Origin: Pirellulales bacterium
Lineage (GTDB): Bacteria > Planctomycetota > Planctomycetia > Pirellulales > JAICIG01
DNA length: 64,000 bases
Assembly (NCBI GenBank): GCA_040901675.1
Contig: JBBDYJ010000038.1
Location: 32,001 to 96,000 of the forward strand
Direction of reading: 5' to 3'
The notes under the pieces were generated by a model. The model worked only from the letters and a program-made list of their open reading frames with translations, was not told where the DNA came from and searched no databases. Below, in pieces: positions 36,546 to 54,126 of the stretch. Position 1 is the first letter of the stretch, and every line of letters begins with the position of its first letter. The position numbers were made by a program, and so were the translations under genes.

Positions 36546-38000
36546 ATGCCTCGAAAACCCGCCGACCCCGATCGTTGGCAACCGTGCCCGCCAGGCGAGC
36601 TCGTTGGACTCGCAGGTCGATTAAAGGCCAAGCGCCGCAGACGCGTGATCGAGGCGGCCCTGGCCACGTCCCTCGCGGCCCTGCTGATGGTCTGGGCCGG
36701 CGTTTATTTCGGCGTTCAGCGATCCCCGCAGCCGACCGACTTCGAATTCGGCGGCATCGCGTGCAGCGAGGTTCGCCCAATTGTGGCAAAGTACATGTCC
36801 GGCGAGCTCGATCCGGCGCTGGCCGCCCGCGTGCGCGAGCACCTTGCCCACTGCGCTGCTTGCGGGAGATTGATGGAGGGCGTGCAGAAGTCCGTTTCGG
36901 CGCCGTCGCTCCCACCGCGCCTTGCCGAGCGCCCAGGTGTGGCCGCCGTCATCGGCAGCCGGCCGTTGATTTCGCTGCGCGCGGTGGCCCTGTGGGCACT
37001 TTTCAGTGATGCCGCGGCTGACGATGCCGAGATCAGCCCCGCCGGCTGGCTGGCCGCGTTCGCGGACCAGTGGGATGACCAACGTTGGCTGTCCAAGCCC
37101 TCGGGCTACATGCGGCCGCTCGACGACGAAGGTTGGCGGGCCCGGATGCGGGCTTTCCAGGCACTGGTCAAGGCGGGGAGCGGCTCGGTCGACCCATTGC
37201 TACAAACTCTGCGCGAAGGGACCACCACCCAACGGATCCTGGCCGCCCAGGTGCTCGGCTATCTGGGCCAGGATGTGCCGCGCCAAGCGTTGATCGAAGT
37301 CGCCCGCGCCGACTCGGACCCCGCCGTCCGGCTCTATGCGATTGCTTCGTTGGGGATGCTTGGTGCCGCGGAACAGGCCGCTTTGCTCCAGGAATTGGCC
37401 GAGTCGGAATCGAATCGTGACGCGAAAAAACACATTGCCTATGCCGTGGGCCGCAATGGGCGGCCGCTCGACGCCATGGTGACAGCCAAGCTGGCCGGAT
37501 GGGACCTCGGCCGCCTCGACACGGCCAAGCTGGGACAAGCGGCGCCCGATTTTGAGTTGACCAGCTTGTCGGGCGAAACGGTCCGGCTGAGCCAGTTTCG
37601 TGGACAAAAGGCGGTGGTGCTGGTCTTCGTCTACGGCGACACGTGACCGGTCTGCCACAGGCAGCTCGCGCAGTTGCGCGACAACCTCAAGGCGATCGAG
37701 GCCGCCGGCGCCCAGCTCCTGGCGGTCGATCCACACGAATCCTGGTCAGCCAAGCACCTGCTCCAAGAGGTGGGCCTGGACACGGCCGACGTGCACTACC
37801 CGTTGCTCAGCGACCCGTCGCTGGTGGTCAGCGCCACCTACGGCGTCGCCTTCCAGATGCGGATCCACACGGAACTGAGCAACCGGCCGGCCACGTTCAT
37901 CGTCGATAGGGAAGGCATCCTCCGGTATGAACGCCGGGCGACGACGTTCTCCGATCGCCCCGCGGTGGACCAGGTCCTCTCGGAACTCAAGAAGCTTTAG
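36546..38000 (+). CDS. Putative selenoprotein: TM + zf-HC2-like + HEAT repeats + AhpC/TSA redoxin domain with U-P-V-C (TGA 37644-37646)
   Basis: ORFs 36546-37646 and 37674-38000 share one frame; APDFELTSLSGETVRLSQFRGQKAVVLVFVYGDT-TGA-PVCHRQL...RPATFIVDREG; hairpin TCGCGC-AGTT-GCGCGA downstream. Confidence 0.82.
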
Positions 38001-38657: not shown

Positions 38658-38670
38658 ATTTGGTTGGCCA

Positions 38671-38686
38671 TGTGTGCCATTTCACA
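38671..38686. promoter_or_regulatory. CRP-type box TGTGT-GCCATT-TCACA
   Basis: 9/10 consensus match; a further box TGTGA-GCCGGC-ACACA lies at 38563-38578. Confidence 0.55.
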
Positions 38687-38795
38687 GTCCGCCGGCGGAT
38701 CAGGGATTAAGGTGCGGGAAGCGGGGGAAGCAGGCAAGGCGGTTCGCCTGGTCCCGACCGTTGTTCCATTCTTTGCACGCAAGCAGGAGACTGGC

Positions 38796-39227
38796 ATGAA
38801 GAAAACTGGCTTGACTCGACGTGACTTTCAGAACCTGTCGCTGGCGGCCGCGGGAGGCCTGCTGATCGGCGCCGGCGGCACCTCGGAGGCCTCCGCTGCC
38901 CAAGACAAAAGGAACGCCCAAGACAAGGACGATGACAAGAACCCGTTGCTGGTCGAGCCGCACGTCTGCCGCGGGCTCAACGCCTGCGCTGGATTGTCGG
39001 CCTGCGCCACGGCGGAGGCCCACGACTGCAAGGGTCAGAACGCGTGCAAAGGCCAGGGGGGCTGCGGCGCTCGCCCGGGCGAAAACGCCTGCAAGGGAAT
39101 GGGTGACTGCGCCGTGCCGCTCACGGAAAAGAAATGGAAGACGGCCCGCGCCCGTTTTGAGCAGTTGATGAAAACGGAACGCAAGGAATTCGGCAAGGCT
39201 CCGACAACGGGTAAGGCGAAGTCATAG
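38796..39227 (+). CDS. Cys-rich bufferin-like (BufA2-type) MNIO precursor with twin-arginine signal
   Basis: AGGAG RBS; TRRDF signal and ASA cleavage-like site; 8 Cys including CKGQNACKGQGGC and NACKGMGDC; directly upstream of DUF692. Confidence 0.82.
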   Translation: MKKTGLTRRDFQNLSLAAAGGLLIGAGGTSEASAAQDKRNAQDKDDDKNPLLVEPHVCRGLNACAGLSACATAEAHDCKGQNACKGQGGCGARPGENACKGMGDCAVPLTEKKWKTARARFEQLMKTERKEFGKAPTTGKAKS

Positions 39228-39258
39228 CCTGCCGGTGCGCTTCGGCACCAAGTCTCCT

Positions 39259-39301
39259 CGGCCGCCGCGGTGGCCCGCTACCACCGCGCCGGCCGCTTTT
39301 T
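39259..39301 (+). terminator. Hairpin with U-tract between precursor and MNIO gene
   Basis: CGGCCG-C-CGCGGTGG-CCCGCTA-CCACCGCG-C-CGGCCG-CTTTTT. Confidence 0.55.
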
Positions 39302-39377
39302 GAATCGCCCGCCCGCGCGGAAGTTGGCTTTTTCCCATTCTCGTTAAAAGTGCAGTCCTTGAGCCAGGCAGCGTCAA

Positions 39378-40301
39378 ATGAGCCCGCAGCGTTTAGGTCA
39401 TCCCGATCTTGGCATGGGCGTGGGCCTGAGGTCAGCCCATTTCTCGCACATCCTCGAACACCAGCCCGGGGTCGATTGGTTCGAGGTCATCTCCGAGAAC
39501 TTCATGGATTCCCAGGGGCGGCCGCGCTACGTCGTCGACCAGATCGCCGAGCGATATCCGCTGGTCATGCACGGCGTTTCACTTTCCATCGGCAGTTGCG
39601 ACCCCCTCAATTTCGATTACCTCCAGCGGCTCAAGCGCCTGGCCGACGGCATCCGGCCTCGCTGGATTTCGGACCACCTCTGCTGGACCGGCGTGATGGG
39701 CCTCAACACGCACGACCTGCTGCCCATTCCCCTCAACGAGGAATCGCTCCGGCACGTGGTCGAGCGGATCCGGATCGTGCAAGACTTTCTCCAGCGTCCG
39801 CTCGTGCTCGAGAATCCGAGTACCTACGTGACGTTTGCCGATTCGACGATCCAGGAGTGGGAGTTCGTCAGCCGCATGGCCGAGGAGGCCGACTGCGGGC
39901 TGCTGCTCGACGTGAACAACGTTTACGTGTCGAGCGTCAACCACGACTTCGATCCCACCGAGTATATCGGGCGGCTGCCTCATCGGCGCATCGTGCAGTT
40001 TCACCTGGCGGGCCATACCAACTGCGGCACGCACTTGATCGATACGCACGACGGCCCGGTCATCGACCCGGTGTGGGAGCTTTACCGGCTGGCCCACGAG
40101 CTCACCGGTGGCGTGTCGACGCTGCTGGAGTGGGACGCCAAGATCCCCGAGTTCCCCGTGGTCCATGCCGAAGCGCTCAAGGCCCGCCGCTGGCGGCAGG
40201 CCCACTCCAGCCCGCCGCCGGCCACCCGCCCGGCCATCCCGGCGGCGGCCCCCGTCTCGGTGCCGCAGCCGCTGGCGCACCTGGTGGTGGACGTTTCATG
40301 A
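39378..40301 (+). CDS. DUF692 multinuclear non-heme iron oxidative enzyme (MNIO, BufB-like)
   Basis: [56 protein letters not shown]. Confidence 0.95.
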
Positions 40302-41179
40302 GTGGTCAGCCTGCCAACTTGGCGCGCCTGCAGCGCTGGATGCAGGCCGTGATCATGCACCCGGACGGGGTCGAAGGCGGCGTGGGGTCGCCCGAAGCGC
40401 GGCGGCTGGTCGATATCGCGTTGGATCAACTCGAACAGGTGATCCACCCTTCGCGGGCGCTCGGCAGCGCCGAACGGCTCGAGATCTATGTGGATGCCTA
40501 TCATCTGCGGCTGATGGATTGCCTGCGAAACCAGTTTCCCGCCCTGGTGAACGCTTTGGGTGAAGCGACCTTCGATGCCGTAGCGTTCGGCTACCTGGGA
40601 GCCTACCCGTCGCGTGGGTATTCTTTGAACAAGTTGGGCGAAAACCTCCCCCAGTTCCTGGCCCAGAACCGCCCGCACGAGTCCGCGGCGCCCGCTGATG
40701 CGCCGTCGAGCTGGCCCGACGGCATCATCGAGCTTTCCACGTTCGAGCGGGCCGTGCAGGAGATCTTCGACGGCCCCGGCGTCGAGGGACAACGGCTGCT
40801 GGAACAAGCGGAGCTGTCGGCGATCGCGCCCTTGGATTGGCCCGGCGCTCGCCTGAAGTGTGTCGAGTGCTTGCGCCTGTTCCGCTTCGCCCATCCCGTA
40901 AACGCCTGGTATTCGCAACTGCGGCACGTCCCATGTCCGCCTCCAGGCCCGTGCGAGTCGCACGTCGCGCTGGTGCGGCAAGATTATACCGTCCGTCGCC
41001 ACGAGCTTTCGCGCCCCCAATACGAGTTGCTGCTGTGCCTGGCGGCGGGCAGCTCGATCGCTTCGGGCATGGAAGCAGCGCTCGGCGGGGCCCGTGACGA
41101 CGTGGCGGACTTGGCCGTCCAAGTGCAGGGCTGGTTTCAGCAATGGGCGACGGGGGGCTTTTTCAGCGGTGTCCAATGA
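40298..41179 (+). CDS. DUF2063-type MNIO partner protein (BufC/HvfC-like)
   Basis: ATGA overlap with DUF692 gene; ERLEIY..AY..RL..CL..QFPAL...LGE..F. Confidence 0.88.
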
Positions 41180-41323
41180 GCGCGTGGAATGTGGTGCCGG
41201 ATACAGAAGCGGCCACGGCCCGCGCACTATGCTAAACAGCCGGGCGTTTTCGAAAGGCTTTTTGGCGTATTCAAGCCCGGGTTTACCCGGTTGAGCTCTT
41301 CAATTCAGTTAGGAGTCGCTTGC

Positions 41324-42514
41324 ATGACTCGGGCGCAAACAACCGCGAATTCATCGCGTCGAGCGGCGCGATGGGCCGGCGGATTGTTGCGGGTGATCGC
41401 GGTCGCGGCCTTGGTTTGGACCGCGTTGTATTGGCACGCCCTTGATCCCACGTACTTGGCGCAAAATGTCCCAGGGCGCCGCGCGCCGCCGAGGCAGACA
41501 TTCGATCTCGAACGGCTGCTCTTGCCTCGGGAGCGGGTTCTGTCGGGAGGCGTGCCCAAAGACGGCATCCCCGCGCTCACCAACCCGCCGCTCGTGCCCG
41601 CCGCCCAGGCCGAGTACCTCCAACCTGGCGACCGGGTGATCGGAGTGGTCATCCAGGGCGAGGCGCGGGCCTACCCGGTCATGGTTCTCACGCGGCACGA
41701 AGTGGTCAATGAGCGGGTGGGCGGCATGCCCGTCGCGGTCACCTATTGCCCGCTGTGCGATTCAGTGGCCCTCTTCGACCGGCGCACCGAGCTCGGCGAG
41801 CGCGAGTTCGGCGTCTCCGGCCTGCTCTACAACAGCAACGTGTTGATCTACGACCGCGGCGGCAAGTCGGAGGGCCTCTGGTCTCAGTTGCTGGCCGGCG
41901 GTGTCTCGGGTCCCGGCTCCGGCACGCCGCTCAAACCGCTTCCCGTGGAGTTGACCACGTGGGCGGATTGGACCGAGCGCTATCCGGAAACCAAGACGCT
42001 TGCGGCCAGCGACGCCGAAGGACGCGCCTTTCGCAACAATCCGTATCGCCGCTACCTTGCCAGTCCGGACCTGATGTTTCCCGTGCAGCCGATCGACAAG
42101 CGTTTGCCCCTGAAGGAGAGGGTGCTGGGCGTTTGGACCGGGAAGGCGGCCCGGGCCTACCCGGTGTCGGCACTGGCCAAACTGCGGGAGCCGTTGTCCC
42201 AGGAGATCGACGGGCGCAAGTTCACGCTGGTCTACAACCCGAAGGCGCAAAGCGTGCGCATGAGCGATGCCGACGAGGGCCTGCATTGGATGTACTCGTT
42301 CTGGTTTGGCTGGTTCGCGTTCCACCCCGACACGGAACTGTTCACGGCGCGGGACGCGGCGGGCACACCGCGCCGGCCAAAAACTTCCAGCCGGGCGACT
42401 CCGGAGGCACGAAATCCCGTCAAGCAGCGCCGCGCCGGCTTCGCGCCAGCCGACGGGGACCGGCCTCCGGCTTCGACGGTTTCGTCAATTCGCTGGGCGA
42501 AGCACTTTCTGTGA
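41324..42514 (+). CDS. DUF3179 family protein
   Basis: SGGVPKDGIPAL, ARAYP...HEVVN, VTYCPLC, FGVSGLLYNSN..YDR, FWFGW.AFHP. Confidence 0.9.
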   Translation: MTRAQTTANSSRRAARWAGGLLRVIAVAALVWTALYWHALDPTYLAQNVPGRRAPPRQTFDLERLLLPRERVLSGGVPKDGIPALTNPPLVPAAQAEYLQPGDRVIGVVIQGEARAYPVMVLTRHEVVNERVGGMPVAVTYCPLCDSVALFDRRTELGEREFGVSGLLYNSNVLIYDRGGKSEGLWSQLLAGGVSGPGSGTPLKPLPVELTTWADWTERYPETKTLAASDAEGRAFRNNPYRRYLASPDLMFPVQPIDKRLPLKERVLGVWTGKAARAYPVSALAKLREPLSQEIDGRKFTLVYNPKAQSVRMSDADEGLHWMYSFWFGWFAFHPDTELFTARDAAGTPRRPKTSSRATPEARNPVKQRRAGFAPADGDRPPASTVSSIRWAKHFL

Positions 42515-44680: not shown

Positions 44681-44993
44681 CGTAGCCCCTCCGAAGCCGC
44701 CTGTAGGGCGGCCCTGCCCGAAATGAAAAAGCTTGAATCCGCAACGTTTTCCGATGGCCGGGAATGGCGCACTGCCGATTGGGAAACCGCGCTCAACAAA
44801 TTCGCGAGCGAGCTGATAGCCAAACGGAAGCAGGACGCGAGAAAACTCGAATAACGATTCATACTTGGCATTCGGAACCTTCTTGCCAAGACTGGCGATT
44901 GGATTTGAACTCGTTAAGTAGCGAGTGCCGTTGACCTGCGGCGAATCAACCGTTCGGGCGGCAATAAACTGAGATCTGCTTGAATCGAGCGAC

Positions 44994-45340
44994 TTAGGAA
45001 CGGCCGAAAAATAACTTCCCCATTTTGCGACGGCGAGATAGGTTGAAAGGCGTTGGGGCAGCGAGGATAGCGCACGGAGGATTGGACAATGGGCTTGTAT
45101 TCGGCGGTGGTGGAGAGGCACATGAAGGCCCTCTATGGTTCCCTCTCGGAGAAGGATCGGCGGCGGTATGCGGCCGTTGAGGCGGAGAAATTGGGCCATG
45201 GTGGCGCGCAGTACGTGGCGGAGCTGTTTGAATGCGATCCGGACACGATACGCCACGGGCAACTGGACGTGGACGAGCTCCCGTTGGACGCGGCGGCTGG
45301 CCGGGTCCGAAAAAAGGGGGGGCCGAAAGAAAGCTAGCAT
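44994..45340 (+). mobile_element. ISAzo13-family IS remnant (left end and 5' transposase part, ORF 45089-45337)
   Basis: LSEKDRRRYAAVEAEKLGHGG...TIRHG..D...RVRKKGG; breaks off after the A6G6 run; no DDE domain. Confidence 0.75.
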
Positions 45341-45547
45341 CGCCCAACCTGGATGCGGCAATGCAAGGATGAATCTGTGAGCGGATCGGATTACGCGATT
45401 CTCAGCCGATAGTTGGGGTCACACCATTCCGGTTCGACCCGGTCCCTCCCGATCGCGAAGGTGCACTTGCCTGGTCGCTGCTGTTGGAGCGAGAAGGTCC
45501 CGGGCGGAATGCCACCGGCAGCTAGCTTGTCACCTCCTGGCCGACCC

Positions 45548-45931
45548 TTATGCCCCGGACTTGACTTCCGTGCCGCCGTAACCGGCCTTCTTGAGCGCAT
45601 CCAAGAGGGCCTGCTCGTCATATTGGTCCGACACCACGGTCACAACGGCTTGCTCCTTGGACAGATCGACCTCAGCCTTCCTTACCCACGGTAAGGATTC
45701 GAGTGCCTCGCGCACTCGCGGTGGTCAGCCGAACGGTCATGTCATGCCTGACACGGAAATGGCAACCTGACGCAAGTTAGCATCGAGCACCGCCGGCGCA
45801 TCCTCCCGGTCGCCTCCTGATGCACCGGAAGGGTTGGGCCATTGATTCTGCTGGCATCCGGCGATCGCCACCCACGCACCGATCAACACCAACCCGGTCC
45901 TTGCCTTACGTGCAGGCGTCAACATGGACAT
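45548..45931 (-). CDS. Putative two-selenocysteine heavy-metal-associated (HMA, MerP/CopZ-like) lipoprotein, GMT-U-PFG-U
   Basis: IAGC lipobox; VAISVSGMT-TGA(45739-45737)-PFG-TGA(45727-45725)-PPRVREALESLPWVRKAEVDLSKEQAVVTV...LLDALKKAGYGG; TAA at 45550-45548; hairpin CGAGTGC-GCGAG-GCACTCG. Confidence 0.85.
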
Positions 45932-46016
45932 ACTCCTCGACAGGGGAACGGAACACGAGCTGCCACGCCGCTGCTTTGCCCGCCAGCGAGTTTACCACGA
46001 GTGGTCATTTAGCTTC

Positions 46017-46032
46017 AGTGAGCTAATTCACA
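46017..46032. promoter_or_regulatory. CRP-type box AGTGA-GCTAAT-TCACA
   Basis: 9/10 match, 86 bp upstream of the HMA gene start. Confidence 0.65.
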
Positions 46033-46076
46033 ATTTCGCTCAAACCGCAGGGACTGCAAACGATGCCCGGCGATCA

Positions 46077-47849
46077 TCAACCGCCGGCGCCGGCCGGACG
46101 GGCGGCCGGGGGCTCGCCGATGGCACGCAGCAAGCGGGCCTGGGCGCGATTGTAGTCGGACACGGCCCGCGTGTAGGCGTTCTGCGCCTCGGTACGGGCC
46201 CGGATGGCCTGCTGCAGCTCAATCGGCAAGCCTTCGCCCTGACGAATCCGCCCCAGGGTGAGACGCAGCGCCTCGCTGGCGGCCGCCACGTTTTCCAGGG
46301 CGATGTCGAACTGTTCCCGATAACTGCCGACGTCGGACGACGCGGTGACGATCTCGGCAGCCACGAGATCCCGCGCCAGGCTGGTCTCGAACCGCGCCTG
46401 GCGCATCTGGCTGGCACGCTGGCGGCGCAGCACGCCATTGCCAAAACCGAGGTTCCGCAACTCCCAGGCTGCAATCGCATCCAGGTCGCTGCGGCTTCCC
46501 TGGTTGTCGAATTGGCCGGAAGGACCTCCCCCAAAGCTCCCCGCGCTGGCACCCACCGCAAGGTGCGGCAGCCAGGGACGCCACCGTTCCTGGTCCAGGC
46601 GTTCCAATGCGGCCCGCACCAGCGCCTGCTGCTGGGCCAGCTCGGGCCGGCTGGTGAATCCTTGCGCCAACAGCGCCTCCAGCGGCATCTGCTCGTTGAC
46701 CAGCTCGATGGGCACGGCACGCTCCTCGGCCGGCACCAAGACCACCCCGGGCGCCAGCCGCAGGAGCCGCGCCAACTCGGCGCTGCGCGCCCGCACCTGC
46801 CGCAGGCTGTCCGCGGCCGCCTGCCGCCAGAACGCCAGTTCGGCGTTGGCGCGGTCGAACTCCGACCGCGCACCACGCCCCTCGCGGAAAAAACTGCCGG
46901 TGATCTCCGACATCTCCCGCGCCGCGGCCACACCCGATTCGGCGTTGGCCAGCAGGCCGTCCGCCTCGACCACGTCGAAATAGGCCGTGGCCACGGCCAA
47001 CAGCGTATCGTTGACGTCGGTGGTGCGGGCGGCCGCTTGTGCCCGCACCAGTTGCCTGGCGACCAGCGGTTCAAAAGCGGCGTCGGCCAGGGCCAGATCG
47101 ACAAAGAGCCGCGCCGGGCCGCCGGCGGCCCCGTTGAGAGGGCGCGTTCCCAGCCCGGCGCCGCCGCCCACGAACAGCGAGCTCCGCCCCGCTTCAATCA
47201 CCTCGCCTTCGGTCGCCTGCAGTCGGCCGTCGTGCTTGTTGTATCCCACGGCCGCCCGCAGCGAAGGTATCCATAGCAGCCGTGCCTGGTCCAGGTTTGC
47301 TTGGGCTTCGACCACGCGCTCGCGAGCCAGCCGGATTCGCAGGTTGTTCGCCCCCGCCAGGGCCAATGCGTTGGCCAGGTCGATCGGAAAGGTCTCGCCT
47401 TGGAAGGCCACCGCGGGTCTGGGCAGCGGCAGGCTCTCCGGAGTCGCCGTCCTGGCTTCCGCGCCAGGCATCGCTTCCGCGCCAGGCGTCCGCCGAGCCG
47501 AAGGCCGGTCGTCCGTCGGATCGTTGCCCGTCTGGGACTCGGCCACGCTCGGAGCGTCGAGAACGAATTGCACCCGGGCGGCAGAGTGGCTGCCGGCGGC
47601 CGGCCCATCTCCCCGGTCGCCGCCGGCCTGCACCACCGGTAACTCCGAGGCGGGCTCGGCGGCAGAGGCTTGCCTGGCCGGGTCGGCTTCGACCGGCTGC
47701 ATCCATGCTCGATCCAGCGGCAACGACGCTACGGGCCGGTCGGCCGTCACCGTGCGCGAATTCAGCGGCAACCCCGTCTGACATCCCACCACGGCCGCAC
47801 AAGACCCGACCCACCACGCGATTGAGCGGCGCCTCTTGATTGCATCCAT
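46077..47849 (-). CDS. TolC family outer membrane protein
   Basis: VVGC lipobox-like signal, IDL..AL.LA...N, two OEP-like helical repeats, YNRAQARL; follows RND and MFP genes. Confidence 0.88.
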   Translation of the reverse strand: MDAIKRRRSIAWWVGSCAAVVGCQTGLPLNSRTVTADRPVASLPLDRAWMQPVEADPARQASAAEPASELPVVQAGGDRGDGPAAGSHSAARVQFVLDAPSVAESQTGNDPTDDRPSARRTPGAEAMPGAEARTATPESLPLPRPAVAFQGETFPIDLANALALAGANNLRIRLARERVVEAQANLDQARLLWIPSLRAAVGYNKHDGRLQATEGEVIEAGRSSLFVGGGAGLGTRPLNGAAGGPARLFVDLALADAAFEPLVARQLVRAQAAARTTDVNDTLLAVATAYFDVVEADGLLANAESGVAAAREMSEITGSFFREGRGARSEFDRANAELAFWRQAAADSLRQVRARSAELARLLRLAPGVVLVPAEERAVPIELVNEQMPLEALLAQGFTSRPELAQQQALVRAALERLDQERWRPWLPHLAVGASAGSFGGGPSGQFDNQGSRSDLDAIAAWELRNLGFGNGVLRRQRASQMRQARFETSLARDLVAAEIVTASSDVGSYREQFDIALENVAAASEALRLTLGRIRQGEGLPIELQQAIRARTEAQNAYTRAVSDYNRAQARLLRAIGEPPAARPAGAGG

Positions 47850-47966
47850 GCGAATCGTTCCTGTCGTTGGTCGCTCAATCCGATCCAGCCGGCATCTTCC
47901 CTCTATCCGTTGTAATCGGAGGCGATAGTCAGCTTTGTTGAGGAACTTTCTTTAAAGCGCCTCTTC

Positions 47967-49301
47967 CTACTCGTCTTGTCCGCCGTTGGCCGAAGGTGAA
48001 AGGCGAACCTCGACCTTCTGCCCGTCGGTCAATCGTTCGCCGGCGCGGGCCACCACGGTTTCTCCAGGCTCGGCGCCGCTCGCCAGCCAGACCACGGTGT
48101 CCTTGCGCAGCACCGAAACAGGGCACCTGCGGACCCGGCCCTGCTCGACGATCATCACGCAATCGCCGCGGTCGTCTGAAACCAGGGCCGCCGCCGGAAC
48201 CGTCGGCGTGTCTCGCCGGGTGTCCAACGTCAACTCCACGTTTCCCAGCACGCCTGGCTCCAGTTTCCGCCTGCCGTAGGACCCGTCGACCGGATTGTCC
48301 AAATCGACTTCGGCCCGCATCTTTCGCGACCCTTCGTTGAAAGCCACCGCATACCGCGATATTCTCCCCTCGATCGGGTTGCCACTGGGCCCGCGAAACA
48401 CAACCGGATCACCCACGTTGAGCTTGCCTGCCGCGTCCATCGTGAGCCAGACCACCAGCCGCAGCTTGTTGTTACGGACCAGCGAGAAGAGCGGCTTGGC
48501 GCTGCCGGCGCTGGCCGGCCGCACAAACGTGCCCCGGTCGATCATGCGGCCGGTGACGACGCCGGCAAATGGCGCCCTGATGACGGTGAACGATTGCATG
48601 GCCTCGGCCTTCTCCCGTGCTGCTTCGGCCGTGCCGATGCGGGCCTCGGTGCTGAGGACATGGGCCTGGGCGGTGTCGACCTGGGCAGCCGCCCGCCGCA
48701 GCGAGGCCACGGATGACTCGAGGGCATAGCGGGCCTCGTCGCGCAATTGCCCCTTCAGGCTGCCGTCCTCGACCAGCGCGGTAATACGCTGGTATTCCGC
48801 CTGGCGCAGCCGCCTTTGCGCTTCGAACTCCTCGACGGTCGCCTTGGCTTCCTCGAATTCGGCTTTCTTACTCGCCAGGTCGGCCTGGGCCTGCTTGACC
48901 AAGGCCCGGCTCTCAGCAACCGCAGCGAGCAACTCGGGCGCGGCGACCGTGGCCAGCACATCCGACTCAGCGACCTCGTCGCCGATGTCCACGTTCACCT
49001 TGTCGATGTACCCCTCGACACGGCCCATCAATTGCACGGTCTCGTAACCGTCGACGTTGCCCGTCAGGTTCACGACCTCTCGCAAATCCGCCGACCGCAC
49101 CGTGGCCACCTCGACCAAGGCGGCCTGATCGGCGGCGGCGCCGGTTGCCGCTTCCGAGGCGGCATAGTCGCAGCCGGCCAGGCCGACCATGGTCAAGGCC
49201 GCCAGCCCGGCGATGGTCAAGGCCGCCAGCCCGATCAGCAAGGGCAAGAAGGCCCTCGCCGAAACGGCCGCGGCGCCGGGTGTGATGAGGTTCTTTTGCA
49301 T
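47967..49301 (-). CDS. RND efflux periplasmic adaptor (MFP)
   Basis: RVEGYIDKVNVDIGDEV, coiled coil, IRAPFAGVVTGR. Confidence 0.92.
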   Translation of the reverse strand: MQKNLITPGAAAVSARAFLPLLIGLAALTIAGLAALTMVGLAGCDYAASEAATGAAADQAALVEVATVRSADLREVVNLTGNVDGYETVQLMGRVEGYIDKVNVDIGDEVAESDVLATVAAPELLAAVAESRALVKQAQADLASKKAEFEEAKATVEEFEAQRRLRQAEYQRITALVEDGSLKGQLRDEARYALESSVASLRRAAAQVDTAQAHVLSTEARIGTAEAAREKAEAMQSFTVIRAPFAGVVTGRMIDRGTFVRPASAGSAKPLFSLVRNNKLRLVVWLTMDAAGKLNVGDPVVFRGPSGNPIEGRISRYAVAFNEGSRKMRAEVDLDNPVDGSYGRRKLEPGVLGNVELTLDTRRDTPTVPAAALVSDDRGDCVMIVEQGRVRRCPVSVLRKDTVVWLASGAEPGETVVARAGERLTDGQKVEVRLSPSANGGQDE

Positions 49302-49361
49302 CGGTCGGCTCCATCATTTGTTGGCAAAGTTGCAAAGTTGTGCACGCCCGGCAATGTCGCC

Positions 49362-52300
49362 TCAGTTCGCCGGCAGGGCTTCTTGGGGCATCCGCTTGAA
49401 CATCACGTACAGGCAGGGAACGACCAGCAGCGAGAGTGCGGTCGCCCCCAGCACGCCTCCGATAATGGCCCGCGCCAGCGGCATGTTGGCCTCGCCGCCG
49501 CCAAAACCGAAAGCCATGGGCAACAGCGCAAGCCACGTCGTGACGGAGGTCATCAGGATCGGCCGCATCCGGACCTGCGCGGCATCGACAATCGCCTCTT
49601 GAACTCCCAACCCCTCGCGGAGGCGGTGGTTGGCGAAATCGACCAGCACGATCGAGTACTCGACCACGATCCCCACCATCATCACGATTCCCATGAAGGC
49701 CATGATCGAAAGACTCGTTCCGGTCAGGTACAACAGCGCCACCACGCCCACGAACCCCAGCGGCACGGTGAGCATGACCACGAAAGGATCCGCGAAGCTG
49801 CGGAACTGCGCCACCATGACCAGGTAGACGAGCAAGCTGGCGATTACCAGCCCGCCGGAGAACTGGGCGAACGATTCGCGCATGCTACGGACCTCGCCCT
49901 GCATCTCGAAGGCGTATCCCTTGCCGGCGAACTTTTCGCCCTCGACCTGGTAGACGCGCCCCCGCTCCGTGCGGCCGGCCTTGGCCCCCAACTCCGGATT
50001 GGCCTCCAACCGCCGCTCGATCGCCGCCACCACCGAGCCCACATCGAAGCCCGGCAGCACGTTGGCGTACACGTCCGTGGCGCGGGTGATGTTGTGATGG
50101 TTGATCACGGCCGGGCCGGTCGTGCGCTCGATCCGCGCCAGGTTCCGCAGCCGGGCCGGTTCGCTGCTGTTCACCCCGGTGATCGGGATGTCGAGCAACG
50201 TATCGAGCGAATTGATGTCTTCCTCCCGATACTGCACGCCCATGAAGTAGTGGTTCCCGTTGCGCTCGTCGATCCAGAAAGCCGGGTCGAAGTTGATCGA
50301 GCTGTTGGTGGCGCTCACCAGGTTCTTCATCACGTTCTCGGGCGTCACTCCCTGGTACGCCGCCAGCACGCGGTCCATGTTCACTTGCAGAATCGGGTAG
50401 TCCATCCGCTGCGCGATTCGCACGTCGGCAGCCCCCTCGACTTGCCGCGCCTCGTCGCGGATCATCACGGCGATCTCCTGCGCGGTGTCGAGATTCGATC
50501 CCGTCACCTGGAAGTGAATGGGCGACGGCTCCCCCATGTTCAACGCCGCCGTCATCATGCCGCCCGTGTCGAACGCGAATTCCACCTCCGGGAACCGCCG
50601 CGTCAACTCGCGGCGCAGGCGGTCCACGTACTCGAATGTGCCCGGCTGGCCGGCCTTCCCCTTGAGCTGCACCAGGATAAAGGCGTCCATCGGGCCCGTG
50701 TTGGGCGTGTAGGCGGCCGGCCAGTCCATCAGCACGCCGATGTTGGAAATCAGGATCTGCATGTTCGATTCAGGAACCTGCTCGTCGCCCAGGGCAAAAG
50801 CGGGGTCGGGCCGGCCGATCTCGGCGATCAGCGCCTGTTCGATCTCGTCGATCCTGGCTTCGGTCCGCTCGATCCGCGTTCCCGACGGCATCCGCGCATA
50901 GATGGTGAACTGGCCCGCGTCGACCGGCGGGAACAGCTCGGTCCCCAGCCGCGTCAGGCCCACCACCGAGACCACGAACAGCACGGCGGCCGCCAGCACC
51001 ACGGCACGCCGCGCCCGCAGCACGCCCCGCAGCAGCCGCCCGTAGGCCCGCACCAACCCGCCGGCGCGCTCGGTTCCCCCGCCCGCCGGCACGCGCAGAA
51101 AGCGCGCGCAATAGGCCGGCACGATCGTGATCGACAGCAGGTAGGAGGCGGCGATGGCGATGCTGGCCGAGACTGCCAGCGGCGTGAACAGGAACTTAGC
51201 CAGCCCCGACAAAAACACGATCGGATAAAAGACGACGATGAACGTAATCGTCGAGACCAGGATCGGCAGGGCCACTTCACGCGTGCCGTCCAGCGCGGCC
51301 TCGAATGGCTTCTTGCCCATCTGCGCATGCCGCACCACGTTTTCCAAAACCACGATCGACTGGTCGACCAGGATGCCGATGGCCAAGGCCAGCCCACCCA
51401 GCGTCATGGCGTTGATCGTGTCGCCCGTGTAGAAAAGCCCGACAACCGCCGCCAGGATGGCCAAGGGAATCGCCAACACGATGATCAGCGTCGATCGCAG
51501 GCTGCGGAGGAACAGGAGCACGACGACGCCGGCCAGCACGGCCCCCAAGCCGGCCGCGATTTGCAATCCTTGGATGCTCTGCCGGACGCCAACCGATTGG
51601 TCCATGGCCACCGAGAGCACCAGTCCCTGGATCTTCGGGTCGTCGGCGTTCATGTCCTTCAGCCGGCTCAGCATCTGGTCCAGCCGGTCCTTGATCGAGT
51701 CGACGATCTGGATGGTGTTGGCCCCCGGCTGCCGGTAGATGGGAATGTACACCTGCCGAGCCCCGTTGACCCGCACCACGTTGGTCTGAATCTGGCCCGC
51801 GTCGCGCACCTCGCCGACGTCCTGCATCAGCACCGGAGCCCCGTCGACGATCTTGATGGGAGCCTGGTTCAGCTCCTCGACCAGCCGGGGAATCGAGTTG
51901 GTGAAGATCTGGAAATCGTAGTCCCCGATCTTGGCGTTCCCGGCGGGGATCAGCACGTTCTGTTCCCGCAGCGCCTGCTGCACGTCCATCAGCGAAAGCC
52001 CCCGCGCCTCCAGCTTCTCGCGGTCCACATAAGCCAGGATCCGCCGCAGCTTGCCGCCGTACACCGCCGGCGCAATCACTCCCTGGATCGACTGCAGCCG
52101 GTTGCGCAGCTCGAAATAGGCGATGTCGTACAGCTCCTTCTCGCTCATCTGCGGATTCGAGACCACCACCAGGCACAGCGGCACCGAGGCCGTGGGATCA
52201 AACGGCATCACCATCGGCGGGATCGTGCCCGGCGGAAGGTAGTACATGTCGCTCACGGCATAGCTGGTCACCTGCGACATGGCCGTGTCCATCGAGATGT

Positions 52301-52610
52301 TCTCGTGGAAAAAGTCCTTGACCACGGAGACGCCCAGCATCGCCTTGCCTTCCTGGTGCTCGATTCCCATCGACTGCCCCGTCCAGCGCTCCATCCGGCT
52401 CATGATGTCCTTTTCCATCACTTCCGGCGGCATGCCCGGATAGAAGGTCAGGATTTGCACCGCCGGAGTCTTGAACGTCGGCAGCAAATCCCGCGGGATC
52501 GGCTGGATCCCCAACGCCGGCACCCCCACGTAGGAGACGCTGCCCAGCACGAGAATGGCCAGCGCCGCCACGATCACCAGGTGCGGGTTATTGAGCGCGG
52601 TTCGGATCAT
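49362..52610 (-). CDS. RND efflux permease
   Basis: 1082 aa; INAMTLGGLALAIGILVD, RMRPILMT, PLARAIIGG. Confidence 0.95.
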   Translation of the reverse strand: MIRTALNNPHLVIVAALAILVLGSVSYVGVPALGIQPIPRDLLPTFKTPAVQILTFYPGMPPEVMEKDIMSRMERWTGQSMGIEHQEGKAMLGVSVVKDFFHENISMDTAMSQVTSYAVSDMYYLPPGTIPPMVMPFDPTASVPLCLVVVSNPQMSEKELYDIAYFELRNRLQSIQGVIAPAVYGGKLRRILAYVDREKLEARGLSLMDVQQALREQNVLIPAGNAKIGDYDFQIFTNSIPRLVEELNQAPIKIVDGAPVLMQDVGEVRDAGQIQTNVVRVNGARQVYIPIYRQPGANTIQIVDSIKDRLDQMLSRLKDMNADDPKIQGLVLSVAMDQSVGVRQSIQGLQIAAGLGAVLAGVVVLLFLRSLRSTLIIVLAIPLAILAAVVGLFYTGDTINAMTLGGLALAIGILVDQSIVVLENVVRHAQMGKKPFEAALDGTREVALPILVSTITFIVVFYPIVFLSGLAKFLFTPLAVSASIAIAASYLLSITIVPAYCARFLRVPAGGGTERAGGLVRAYGRLLRGVLRARRAVVLAAAVLFVVSVVGLTRLGTELFPPVDAGQFTIYARMPSGTRIERTEARIDEIEQALIAEIGRPDPAFALGDEQVPESNMQILISNIGVLMDWPAAYTPNTGPMDAFILVQLKGKAGQPGTFEYVDRLRRELTRRFPEVEFAFDTGGMMTAALNMGEPSPIHFQVTGSNLDTAQEIAVMIRDEARQVEGAADVRIAQRMDYPILQVNMDRVLAAYQGVTPENVMKNLVSATNSSINFDPAFWIDERNGNHYFMGVQYREEDINSLDTLLDIPITGVNSSEPARLRNLARIERTTGPAVINHHNITRATDVYANVLPGFDVGSVVAAIERRLEANPELGAKAGRTERGRVYQVEGEKFAGKGYAFEMQGEVRSMRESFAQFSGGLVIASLLVYLVMVAQFRSFADPFVVMLTVPLGFVGVVALLYLTGTSLSIMAFMGIVMMVGIVVEYSIVLVDFANHRLREGLGVQEAIVDAAQVRMRPILMTSVTTWLALLPMAFGFGGGEANMPLARAIIGGVLGATALSLLVVPCLYVMFKRMPQEALPAN

Positions 52611-53497
52611 GGGGAGCCCGGGGTCGCCTCTGCGGCAAATCGAGTTGGATTAACGTCAGCGAACGAGTCGAAGGCAACGAGTCTCTGCCGCGGCGCTTCG
52701 TTCTGCGGTGCCGCGCGCCCGGAATGATGGGCCCCGTAGCCGCGCAGGATCTCCACCAGCACGTCGCGCGGCGCCCGCCCCAGCACCAGCACAACGTGCC
52801 CGTGCAGCAGGCCGGCGACCATCTGGTACCGCCCTTCCCGGCACTCGTGTAACCGTCCCTCGGCCGGCAGATGCTCCCGCATTTGCGGAAACGCGCGCAA
52901 GCTTTGAAAAGGCAAGACGAATACCGAAACAGGCTGCCGGTCCACCTCGCCCACGATGTGCACTCCCAGCTCGCGCTTCAGGCGGCACAGGCCTCCCCCC
53001 TTGAGCTCAAAACCTGCCTGCCCCCGAGGCGGGCAGCGCACCGCAAACCCGGCCCTGGGGCGCAATCGCTGCTCGACCTCCTCCACCGAGCTGCTCACCA
53101 CTTCGGCCTGCCAAGAGCCGCTCACGTAGTTCTCGTGCTCCGTCGCCGCCAGCCGACCCAGGTTGTCCGAATCGCCCAGCCGGGTGAGCGACCACAAGCC
53201 GACGGCCACGACGACCGACGCGGCCAAGGCCAACATCCACAGCCCCTTCGAGCGGCTGGCGGGCACCGCCGCATCGCTGAGCAACTGCTGTTCGATCGTC
53301 TGCCACGTGCTGGCGTTCGCCTCGCCGCGTGCCAAGAGGTCGTCCAGCAGGCCCTGCGTCCTTGCCTCGCGGGCGAACCAGGCCTTGCACTGCGGGCACG
53401 TCGCGAGGTGGTCGCTGATTTGAAAGTGCAGCTCCGCTCCTCCCTCGCTGTCGTAATAGAGATGGAAGAATTTGCGGATGTCGTTGCAGTTGGTCAT
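52607..53497 (-). CDS. zf-HC2 anti-sigma factor
   Basis: MTNC...YYDSE...HLATCPQC, TM helix, Cys/His-containing C-terminal domain; ATGA overlaps with sigma and RND genes. Confidence 0.85.
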   Translation of the reverse strand: MTNCNDIRKFFHLYYDSEGGAELHFQISDHLATCPQCKAWFAREARTQGLLDDLLARGEANASTWQTIEQQLLSDAAVPASRSKGLWMLALAASVVVAVGLWSLTRLGDSDNLGRLAATEHENYVSGSWQAEVVSSSVEEVEQRLRPRAGFAVRCPPRGQAGFELKGGGLCRLKRELGVHIVGEVDRQPVSVFVLPFQSLRAFPQMREHLPAEGRLHECREGRYQMVAGLLHGHVVLVLGRAPRDVLVEILRGYGAHHSGRAAPQNEAPRQRLVAFDSFADVNPTRFAAEATPGSP

Positions 53498-54126
53498 GCG
53501 TCTTCTCCAGCCGGTGGGGCGGAAGGAGGTGGGCTCGCCGAGGGGCGGGCGGCCTCGGCCGGATCGGTCCACCTGTTCTCCATTGCGTACTCGCTCAGAA
53601 ATGTCCGCATCCGCCGCCTCGCGCGCGACAGGTACCCCATAACGCTCGCCACCGGTATCTCCAACATCTCGTGAATCTCGTGGTAGCTGAACTCGCCGAT
53701 CGACTTGAGCAGCAAGCAGGAACGCTCCGCGGCACTCAGCCGGGCCAGGGCCTGGACCAGCGGATCCTGCAGCAGTTCGAGCAGCCGCTCGGGATCATTA
53801 TCCAGCAGACTTTCGACGGCATCGTCCGCTTGCGGCTGCTCGCGGGCCTCCTCCAGGCCCATCTCCTCCGGTATCTCGGCCAGCAGCAGCGGCTCGTGCC
53901 GGCGGTTCGCGTTGAACACCTGGTACGTCACGAAGCGGAACATCCAAGCCTTGAAGTTCGTGCCGGGCGAAAAGTTGCCAAACTCCTGAAATGCCTTCAG
54001 CACCGCGTCCTGCAACACGTCCTCGACGTGTGCCGGGTTGCGCAGCATCCGCCTCGCATACAACTGAAGTTGTTGCTCGATGGGCTTCAGCAGCTTGACG
54101 AAGCTCGGGGCGTCGGCGCGATTCAA
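53494..54126 (-). CDS. ECF RNA polymerase sigma factor
   Basis: EDVLQD...KA...F.PGTNFKAWMF; FSYHEI..MLEIPVASVMGYLSRAR; TTG start. Confidence 0.92.
   Translation of the reverse strand: MNRADAPSFVKLLKPIEQQLQLYARRMLRNPAHVEDVLQDAVLKAFQEFGNFSPGTNFKAWMFRFVTYQVFNANRRHEPLLLAEIPEEMGLEEAREQPQADDAVESLLDNDPERLLELLQDPLVQALARLSAAERSCLLLKSIGEFSYHEIHEMLEIPVASVMGYLSRARRRMRTFLSEYAMENRWTDPAEAARPSASPPPSAPPAGEDA

Follow-up and report, generated by a model that had tools for sequence, protein, structure and literature searches.

A predicted double-selenocysteine HMA lipoprotein gene from a Pirellulales bacterium with a candidate SECIS hairpin for each in-frame TGA

Locus and gene product

The stretch of DNA analysed here, called the window, comprises 64,000 nucleotides of contig JBBDYJ010000038.1 from a Pirellulales bacterium. 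On its minus strand, behind a TolC-like gene, lies a short gene for an HMA-domain protein whose reading frame runs through two TGA codons. The features of this locus are as follows.

46077..54126, minus strand: context genes for ECF sigma factor, anti-sigma factor, RND permease, adaptor and TolC-like protein, upstream of the HMA gene
45933..45938, minus strand: Shine-Dalgarno-like GAGGAG, 7 nt before ATG 45925 and 1 nt before ATG 45931
45548..45931, minus strand: coding sequence of the HMA lipoprotein through two TGAs, 127 aa from ATG 45931
45854..45931, minus strand: predicted signal peptide and lipobox I-A-G-C26, predicted lipidated Cys codon at 45856-45854
45578..45760, minus strand: HMA domain (PF00403, residues 58-118), beta-alpha-beta-beta-alpha-beta fold, from profile match and model
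45737..45739, minus strand: TGA1, predicted Sec65, first metal-ligand position
45725..45727, minus strand: TGA2, predicted Sec69, second metal-ligand position
45700..45718, minus strand: hairpin 1, CGAGTGC-GCGAG-GCACTCG, 7 bp, loop GCGAG at 45711-45707, predicted SECIS for Sec65
45679..45697, minus strand: hairpin 2, TCCTTACC-GTG-GGTAAGGA, 8 bp, loop GTG at 45689-45687, predicted SECIS for Sec69

Translation from 45931 to 45548 with TGA read as U yields 127 residues that end at a TAA (45550-45548) and include the ligand loop GMT-U-PFG-U-PP. The plus-strand reading of the same interval contains stops and no domain, and was discarded. The read-through product matches PF00403 over residues 58-118 (E 2.1e-10; 41.3 bits against a gathering cut-off of 24.8), and U65 and U69 of the GMT-U-PFG-U loop occupy the two metal-ligand positions. 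These results agree with the original prediction, which had proposed a 127-aa HMA protein obtained by reading through two TGAs at the ligand codons and had named PF00403 as a check.

The 68-residue domain, modelled by AlphaFold with U read as C, reached a pLDDT of 92. It adopts a ferredoxin-like beta-alpha-beta-beta-alpha-beta fold with the ligand loop ahead of helix 1, and superimposes on MerP (1osd) with a TM score of 0.91 and on PacS, MerP and CopZ structures with scores of 0.89-0.91. The canonical GMxCxxC spacing is absent: the loop reads U-x3-U, and both PDB alignments printed contain a one-residue insertion. The true start is probably ATG 45925, which would give a protein of 125 aa, because GAGGAG lies 7 nt from this codon and only 1 nt from ATG 45931.

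The N-terminus has the basic n-region, hydrophobic h-region and lipobox cysteine of a bacterial lipoprotein, as judged from the sequence and a regular expression, and is joined to the HMA domain by a linker. Signal peptidase II (LspA) is encoded in the genome. By the lipobox rule, which we take to hold here, Cys26 would be the lipidation site. The strict regular expression also detects a lipobox in 44 of 97 relatives with an x3 motif. The earlier description as an exported HMA-fold lipoprotein is thus consistent with the domain match, the predicted signal peptide and the lipobox. The expectation that standard gene callers would miss the gene also proved correct, as the protein collection holds only a 55-aa fragment that begins after TGA2. 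A word-indexed protein search with the HMA protein returned just two matches, since the protein collection stores TGA forms as truncated sequences; one match is a fragment that begins downstream of the motif.

Selenocysteine at the two TGA codons

A selenocysteine system, on which the original prediction depended, is encoded in the genome in full: selA, selB, selC (tRNA-Sec(UCA)) and selD. One selB exceeds its cut-off. A single UCA tRNA passes the tRNA-Sec cut-off among the 150 of 903 candidates scored, and it has G as discriminator base. TGA ends more long ORFs than any other stop codon (265 of 536); the genome is therefore not recoded to Trp, nor recoded in general.

Relatives were gathered by six-frame searches of 401 genomes of the phylum and 61 closer relatives and by a two-TGA pattern scan of GTDB genomes. 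A metagenome locus scan gave at least 3 loci and was set aside. The pattern scan gave 44 matches, of which 31 are HMA genes (27 from Planctomycetota, 3 from Armatimonadota and 1 from Myxococcales); the remaining 13 were non-HMA chance matches and were set aside. In total, 190 HMA domains in the fetched loci carry a recognizable motif: CxxC in 63, UxxxC in 51, UxxxU in 38, CxxxC in 23, UxxU in 9 and UxxC in 6. The pattern scan inflates the U/U figure, to which the unselected searches contribute 14 de-duplicated domains. Six further HMA matches in these loci have no motif. None of the 190 motif-bearing domains carries U at the second position alone.

The alignment of homologues suggested in the original prediction gave Cys or Sec at both positions, in C/C, U/C or U/U form. 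The TGAs are conserved and align with Cys in homologues, as expected of a bacterial selenoprotein. L175 is a Cys twin that shares the PFG spacer and occurs in genome G315, where selA was not found. Among sampled genomes with a TGA form, 52 of 53 contain selA, versus 287 of 401 genomes overall; the lone exception is 80% complete. The latter count also indicates that Sec use looks widespread in the phylum. One family near the window's class mostly lacks selA (1 of 20 genomes) and carries the C-x3-C form.

Hairpins after the two codons

The loop of hairpin 1 starts 25 nt after TGA1 and 13 nt after TGA2; its sequence and both spacings are exactly as first described. In a 35-nt window it folds at -12.6 kcal/mol (z -3.19, with none of 200 shuffles as good), and in wider windows the z-score is -1.3 (60 nt) or -1.0 (100 nt). 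The G-initial loop of hairpin 2, which the original prediction missed, follows TGA2 by 35 nt and TGA1 by 47 nt. Within this gene alone the folding signal of hairpin 2 is modest: z is -2.0, 10 of 200 shuffles match it, and 5% of synonymous shuffles of the HMA gene fold as well.

The bacterial SECIS model in PMC13188914 (section 5) specifies a loop of 3-9 nt with G in position 1 or 2, a stem of 4-16 bp, a distance of 16-37 nt after the UGA and a folding energy of at most -7.5 kcal/mol. Hairpin 1 fits this model for TGA1 (25 nt, -11.3 kcal/mol) and hairpin 2 fits it for TGA2 (35 nt, -9.6 kcal/mol). The crosswise assignments fall outside the spacing range, at 13 nt for hairpin 1 with TGA2 and at 47 nt for hairpin 2 with TGA1.

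Across the relatives, hairpins were counted after de-duplication at 80% identity, with G in loop position 1-2, an energy of -5 kcal/mol or lower and perfect stems only. A hairpin near codon 1 was found in 37 of 47 UxxxC, 14 of 32 UxxxU and 2 of 18 CxxxC genes. At 17-37 nt after codon 2 the pattern differs: 26 of 32 UxxxU genes have a hairpin, versus 7 of 47 UxxxC and 4 of 18 CxxxC genes, with synonymous-shuffle expectations of 7.0, 5.4 and 2.5, respectively. When domains were matched by peptide in the register of the HMA gene under study, hairpin 2 was present in 15 of 17 UxxxU domains versus 2 of 60 with Cys at position two; in the other register the counts were 8 of 9 and 0 of 21, both narrow registers (loop at 37/38 or 49/50) having been picked after data inspection. 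The relatives are not independent, so Fisher p-values overstate these differences. In an alignment of 16 genes chosen for having hairpin 2, 95.5% of its positions are paired and 4 of 7 pairs have changed on both sides, against 32-54% paired in slid controls.

Two layouts emerge among the 32 U/U genes. Hairpin 2 occurs in 16 of them (tandem type), including the gene under study. Another 12 have a single hairpin of shared type, whose loop follows TGA1 by 34-35 nt and TGA2 by 22-23 nt, and the remaining 4 lack a perfect hairpin in both registers. A G-loop hairpin 1 at -5 kcal/mol or lower is present in 12 of 16 tandem-type versus 2 of 12 shared-type genes. Since shared-type genes mostly do without it, one hairpin can serve both codons there, and these 12 relatives appear to share one hairpin within range of both. 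A hairpin-2-like stem is kept in 3 of 47 U/C genes and may be a remnant after reversion to Cys. In a quick tree of 70 columns, poorly resolved with 4 of 94 branches starred so that origins are not countable, 14 of the 16 tandem-hairpin genes fall inside one unstarred clade. An exception to the overall pattern is L167 (G310:C18): a single gene encodes two closely related HMA domains in tandem, a U/C domain and a U/U domain, and the latter lacks a perfect hairpin in both registers.

From these data, both TGAs very probably encode Sec, and the gene would be a real double-Sec HMA lipoprotein gene. SelB and tRNA(Sec) would insert Sec at each UGA of an intact selenoprotein gene. Hairpin 1 would direct decoding of UGA1; with the ribosome four codons further on, it would be too near for reuse and probably unwinding, and hairpin 2 would direct UGA2. 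That the HMA gene under study has one SECIS per Sec codon is quite likely, because hairpin 2 is nearly confined to domains with a second TGA (15/17 versus 2/60) and covaries. The original prediction had instead allowed one SECIS to serve both codons, which is not borne out here, as hairpin 1 lies only 13 nt from TGA2, below the 16-37 nt range, and the second hairpin tracks TGA2 in relatives. Judged by hairpin position, the shared-SECIS idea would suit some relatives and not the gene at 45548..45931.

Two alternatives concern the decoding itself. The TGAs might not specify Sec at all, if the gene were a pseudogene, if the assembly were wrong or if UGA were read as Cys through tRNA-ReC. A remnant of an ISAzo13 element directly downstream would suit a decaying gene, and the available portion of PMC13582414 cautions that tRNA-ReC can turn UGA into Cys in UXXU genomes. 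At 90% completeness, the assembly may lack a tRNA of this kind, and a relaxed ARAGORN scan for tRNA-ReC-like genes gave output too noisy for use. This explanation is nevertheless highly improbable. Dozens of divergent relatives keep an intact frame with TGA at the ligand codons, and the only UCA tRNA to exceed the tRNA-Sec threshold, among the 150 of 903 candidates scored, has a G discriminator and is accompanied by one selB. Moreover, the HMA gene is spanned by a contig that the same study obtained from another sample. It differs by 4 substitutions and by 3 inserted nucleotides that keep the frame, and the listed differences leave both TGAs untouched. The window DNA may itself derive from run X1, which is therefore not independent; soil-run contig X4, with a motif depth of 2.6 and just 6 of 17 differences listed, was left out. 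If Sec is accepted, hairpin 1 alone could still recruit SelB for both UGAs, with hairpin 2 acting as a pause or stability element or persisting as an inherited passenger. In the accessible text of PMC13582414, one SECIS is suggested to serve both codons of UXXU hydrogenases, 12 of 32 U/U relatives apparently rely on a single hairpin (34-35 nt from TGA1, 22-23 nt from TGA2), and some bacterial SECIS elements lie outside the 16-37 nt model (PMC13188914). Against this, hairpin 1 is 13 nt from TGA2 in the gene under study, the relatives with a shared hairpin use a different register, and the peptide-matched distribution and covariation of hairpin 2 point to a role tied to the second codon. Decoding of both codons by hairpin 1 is thus quite unlikely, and one SECIS per codon is retained as the preferred reading.

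Gene neighbourhood

The TolC-like gene ends at 46077, on the same strand and 145 nt before the first ATG of the HMA gene, which matches its original placement behind TolC. The module of sigma factor, anti-sigma factor, RND permease, adaptor and TolC is conserved within the taxonomic order, without the HMA gene. No HMA match was found downstream of 26 TolC orthologues (at least 950 nt downstream; 3 of 29 were dropped as too short), nor in the 14 longer orthologue regions. The adjacent permease scores 335 bits on the CusA/CzcA model, for which the cut-off is 701, and is not CusA-type; the genome's CusA-type gene lies on another contig. A promoter and terminator scan of 45000-46500 found neither. 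The adjacency of the HMA gene and tolC looks incidental.

Other features of the window and genome deserve mention. Just behind the HMA gene, the ISAzo13 transposase remnant (44993-45345, plus strand) covers positions 3-66 of 387 of NF033519, and its left part is repeated at several contig ends. A bufferin-like cluster at 38664-42514 (plus strand) comprises a BufA2-like precursor (below cut-off), a BufB MNIO maturase (360 bits, cut-off 310), a DUF2063 protein and then a DUF3179 gene with a Cys motif. Bufferins are copper chelators. A second hidden selenoprotein candidate lies at 36546-38000 (plus strand; TGA at 37644-37646) and combines zf-HC2, HEAT repeats and an AhpC/TSA domain; its active site would read YGDT-U-PV-C (UxxC), and the read-through product passes PF00578 (95 bits). 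A hairpin follows this TGA, with a weak folding z-score of -1.0 to -1.3. Elsewhere in the genome, at G000:C14:69183-73788, 19 tRNA genes are arrayed on one strand.

Proposed function

Exported and lipid-anchored, the protein would display its U-PFG-U loop on a fold like that of MerP and CopZ. Its two selenium atoms could hold Hg(II), Cu(I) or Ag(I) between them, and the metal could be scavenged or passed on outside the cytoplasm. The protein is probably a binder of such soft metals because of its fold, the MerT fusions that carry the same U-x3-U loop and the mer and cus neighbours of its relatives. Genes of mer, cus or ArsR type occur at 9 of 25 annotated U/U loci, a survey that omitted 6 of 31 loci as short or near-duplicate and scanned 68 of 109 called ORFs. 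These neighbours include MerR (L078, L083, L112), a MerT-HMA protein (L080), MerC (L087), MerA above its cut-off (L115, directly behind merA) and CusB-like adaptors with RND genes (L093, L096, L097). At the other 16 of 25 loci, no metal-related neighbour was found among the ORFs scanned (68/109), and neither a MerT match nor a MerA above its cut-off was found in the 90% complete genome. The original prediction called the site a diselenol; a diselenide would also be plausible in the periplasm.

The main functional rival regards U-x3-U as a periplasmic redox centre (diselenide/diselenol), or as a metal-and-redox sensor, and not as a carrier. Diselenides are very stable and the periplasm is oxidising, the domain is fused to thioredoxin domains in L073, L080, L093 and L115, and L087 has a weak match to the DsbD N-terminal domain (E 7e-4, below cut-off). 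The x3 spacing is also unlike canonical CxxC. Yet the fold is nearest to MerP and CopZ, MerT fusions and mer/cus neighbours accompany the family, and thioredoxin fusions are equally compatible with keeping a metal site reduced, all of which makes a redox centre unlikely. Even less probable is delivery of metal to the adjacent RND-adaptor-TolC pump in the manner of CusF for CusCBA, the role originally suggested for this protein. Co-transcription is possible, given the shared strand, the 145-nt gap and the lack of a terminator-like site in 45000-46500; an RND gene lies near 3 of 31 U/U loci, L096 being a cusB-cusF-cusA-like cluster, and the bufferin-like copper cluster is 4-7 kb away. However, the permease falls well below the CusA/CzcA cut-off (335 versus 701 bits) with the CusA-type gene on another contig, TolC orthologues have no HMA neighbour (0/26 and 0/14), and the RND genes beside U/U relatives are merely 22-29% identical to that of the window. 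A pump-feeding role is thus very unlikely, and soft-metal binding remains the favoured function.

Four relatives (L080, L089, L093 and L115) are exported proteins with two Sec-HMA domains, one U-x3-U and one U-x2-U with four TGAs in all, fused to a thioredoxin domain.

The whole reading, in which an intact double-Sec gene with a hairpin for each codon encodes an exported soft-metal binder, is on balance probable. A wider proposal is reasonably probable: the family would have two natural decodings (tandem SECIS at 25 nt/35 nt, or a shared hairpin at 34-35/22-23 nt), with hairpin 2 gained or lost together with UGA2 and Sec never at position two alone. Its members, exported soft-metal binders with a U-x3-U loop and in some cases four Sec in tandem domains, would make up a family that is widespread in Planctomycetota and not yet catalogued.

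Significance

How two close Sec codons are decoded in bacteria is an open question, and the work on UXXU hydrogenases, in the accessible part of PMC13582414, only suggests a shared SECIS. With C/C, U/C and U/U members and two hairpin layouts, the HMA gene and its relatives are ready-made material for testing it. The decoding layout, with a predicted SECIS per codon here and an apparently shared one in other members, is the most useful result, and decoding rules would aid the production of multi-Sec proteins. The U-x3-U HMA family occurs commonly in Planctomycetota; its members are cut short in protein databases and score below the cut-offs of curated Sec-HMA models. With its two selenium atoms on a MerP fold, such a site is in addition a candidate for high-affinity binding of mercury or copper in sediments.

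Comparison with known systems

Other double selenoproteins were reportedly described by Haft and Tolstoy in 2025. A two-Sec HMA protein as such is already on record as NF041115, which limits the surprise of the present one. The consulted part of the 119-family list in PMC13188914 (section 7) includes NF041115 (UxxU, two Sec), a MerT-type transporter and a P-type ATPase with a Sec-HMA domain, and contains no U-x3-U HMA lipoprotein. The family is likewise not described in the available portions of 10.1101/2022.07.06.499078 and PMC1976440. No description of a U-x3-U HMA family or of tandem bacterial SECIS elements was found in the literature searched, which lay mostly outside subscription papers and supplements.

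The closest catalogued family, NF041115 (UxxU_metal_bind), is likewise HMA-like with Sec predicted at both ligand positions and matches residues 52-118 (E 3.4e-10). The HMA protein differs in its U-x3-U instead of U-x2-U motif and in its score of 39.9 bits against a cut-off of 95; the 74-position model covers the domain only, to which the HMA protein adds a lipoprotein signal. NF045683, a MerT/CopZ fusion-like selenoprotein, shares the Sec-HMA domain, and MerT-HMA fusions occur among the relatives (L078, L112, L082). The HMA protein itself has no MerT part and scores 26.1 bits against 375, while the MerT fusions of relatives reach 43-61. None of the 13 relatives tested reached the cut-off of either model, the best NF041115 score being 62.5.

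MerP (TIGR02052; PDB 1osd and 1afi) and CopZ have the same fold (TM 0.91 to 1osd) and the GMT-C start of the motif, and export is shared with MerP. The HMA protein differs from MerP by an extra residue between the ligands, Sec in place of Cys and a lipobox; it scores 44.2 bits on TIGR02052 against 92.55, and no mer operon was found in the genome. A Sec form of 'Mercuric transport protein MerP' is listed for GOS, with 2 sequences, in the part of PMC2398784 consulted.

CusF in the CusCBA system is likewise a small exported metal binder beside an RND system. Here, however, the adjacent pump is not of the CusA/CzcA type and the pairing is not conserved. CusF also differs from the HMA protein in fold and ligands.

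With regard to decoding, the nearest parallel is the UXXU Group 4 [NiFeSe] hydrogenases, which likewise have two close UGA-Sec codons decoded by SelB with in-frame hairpins. For these, a single SECIS for both codons is suggested in the available text of PMC13582414 (2026), whereas the U-x3-U relatives show both tandem (16/32) and single (12/32) layouts.
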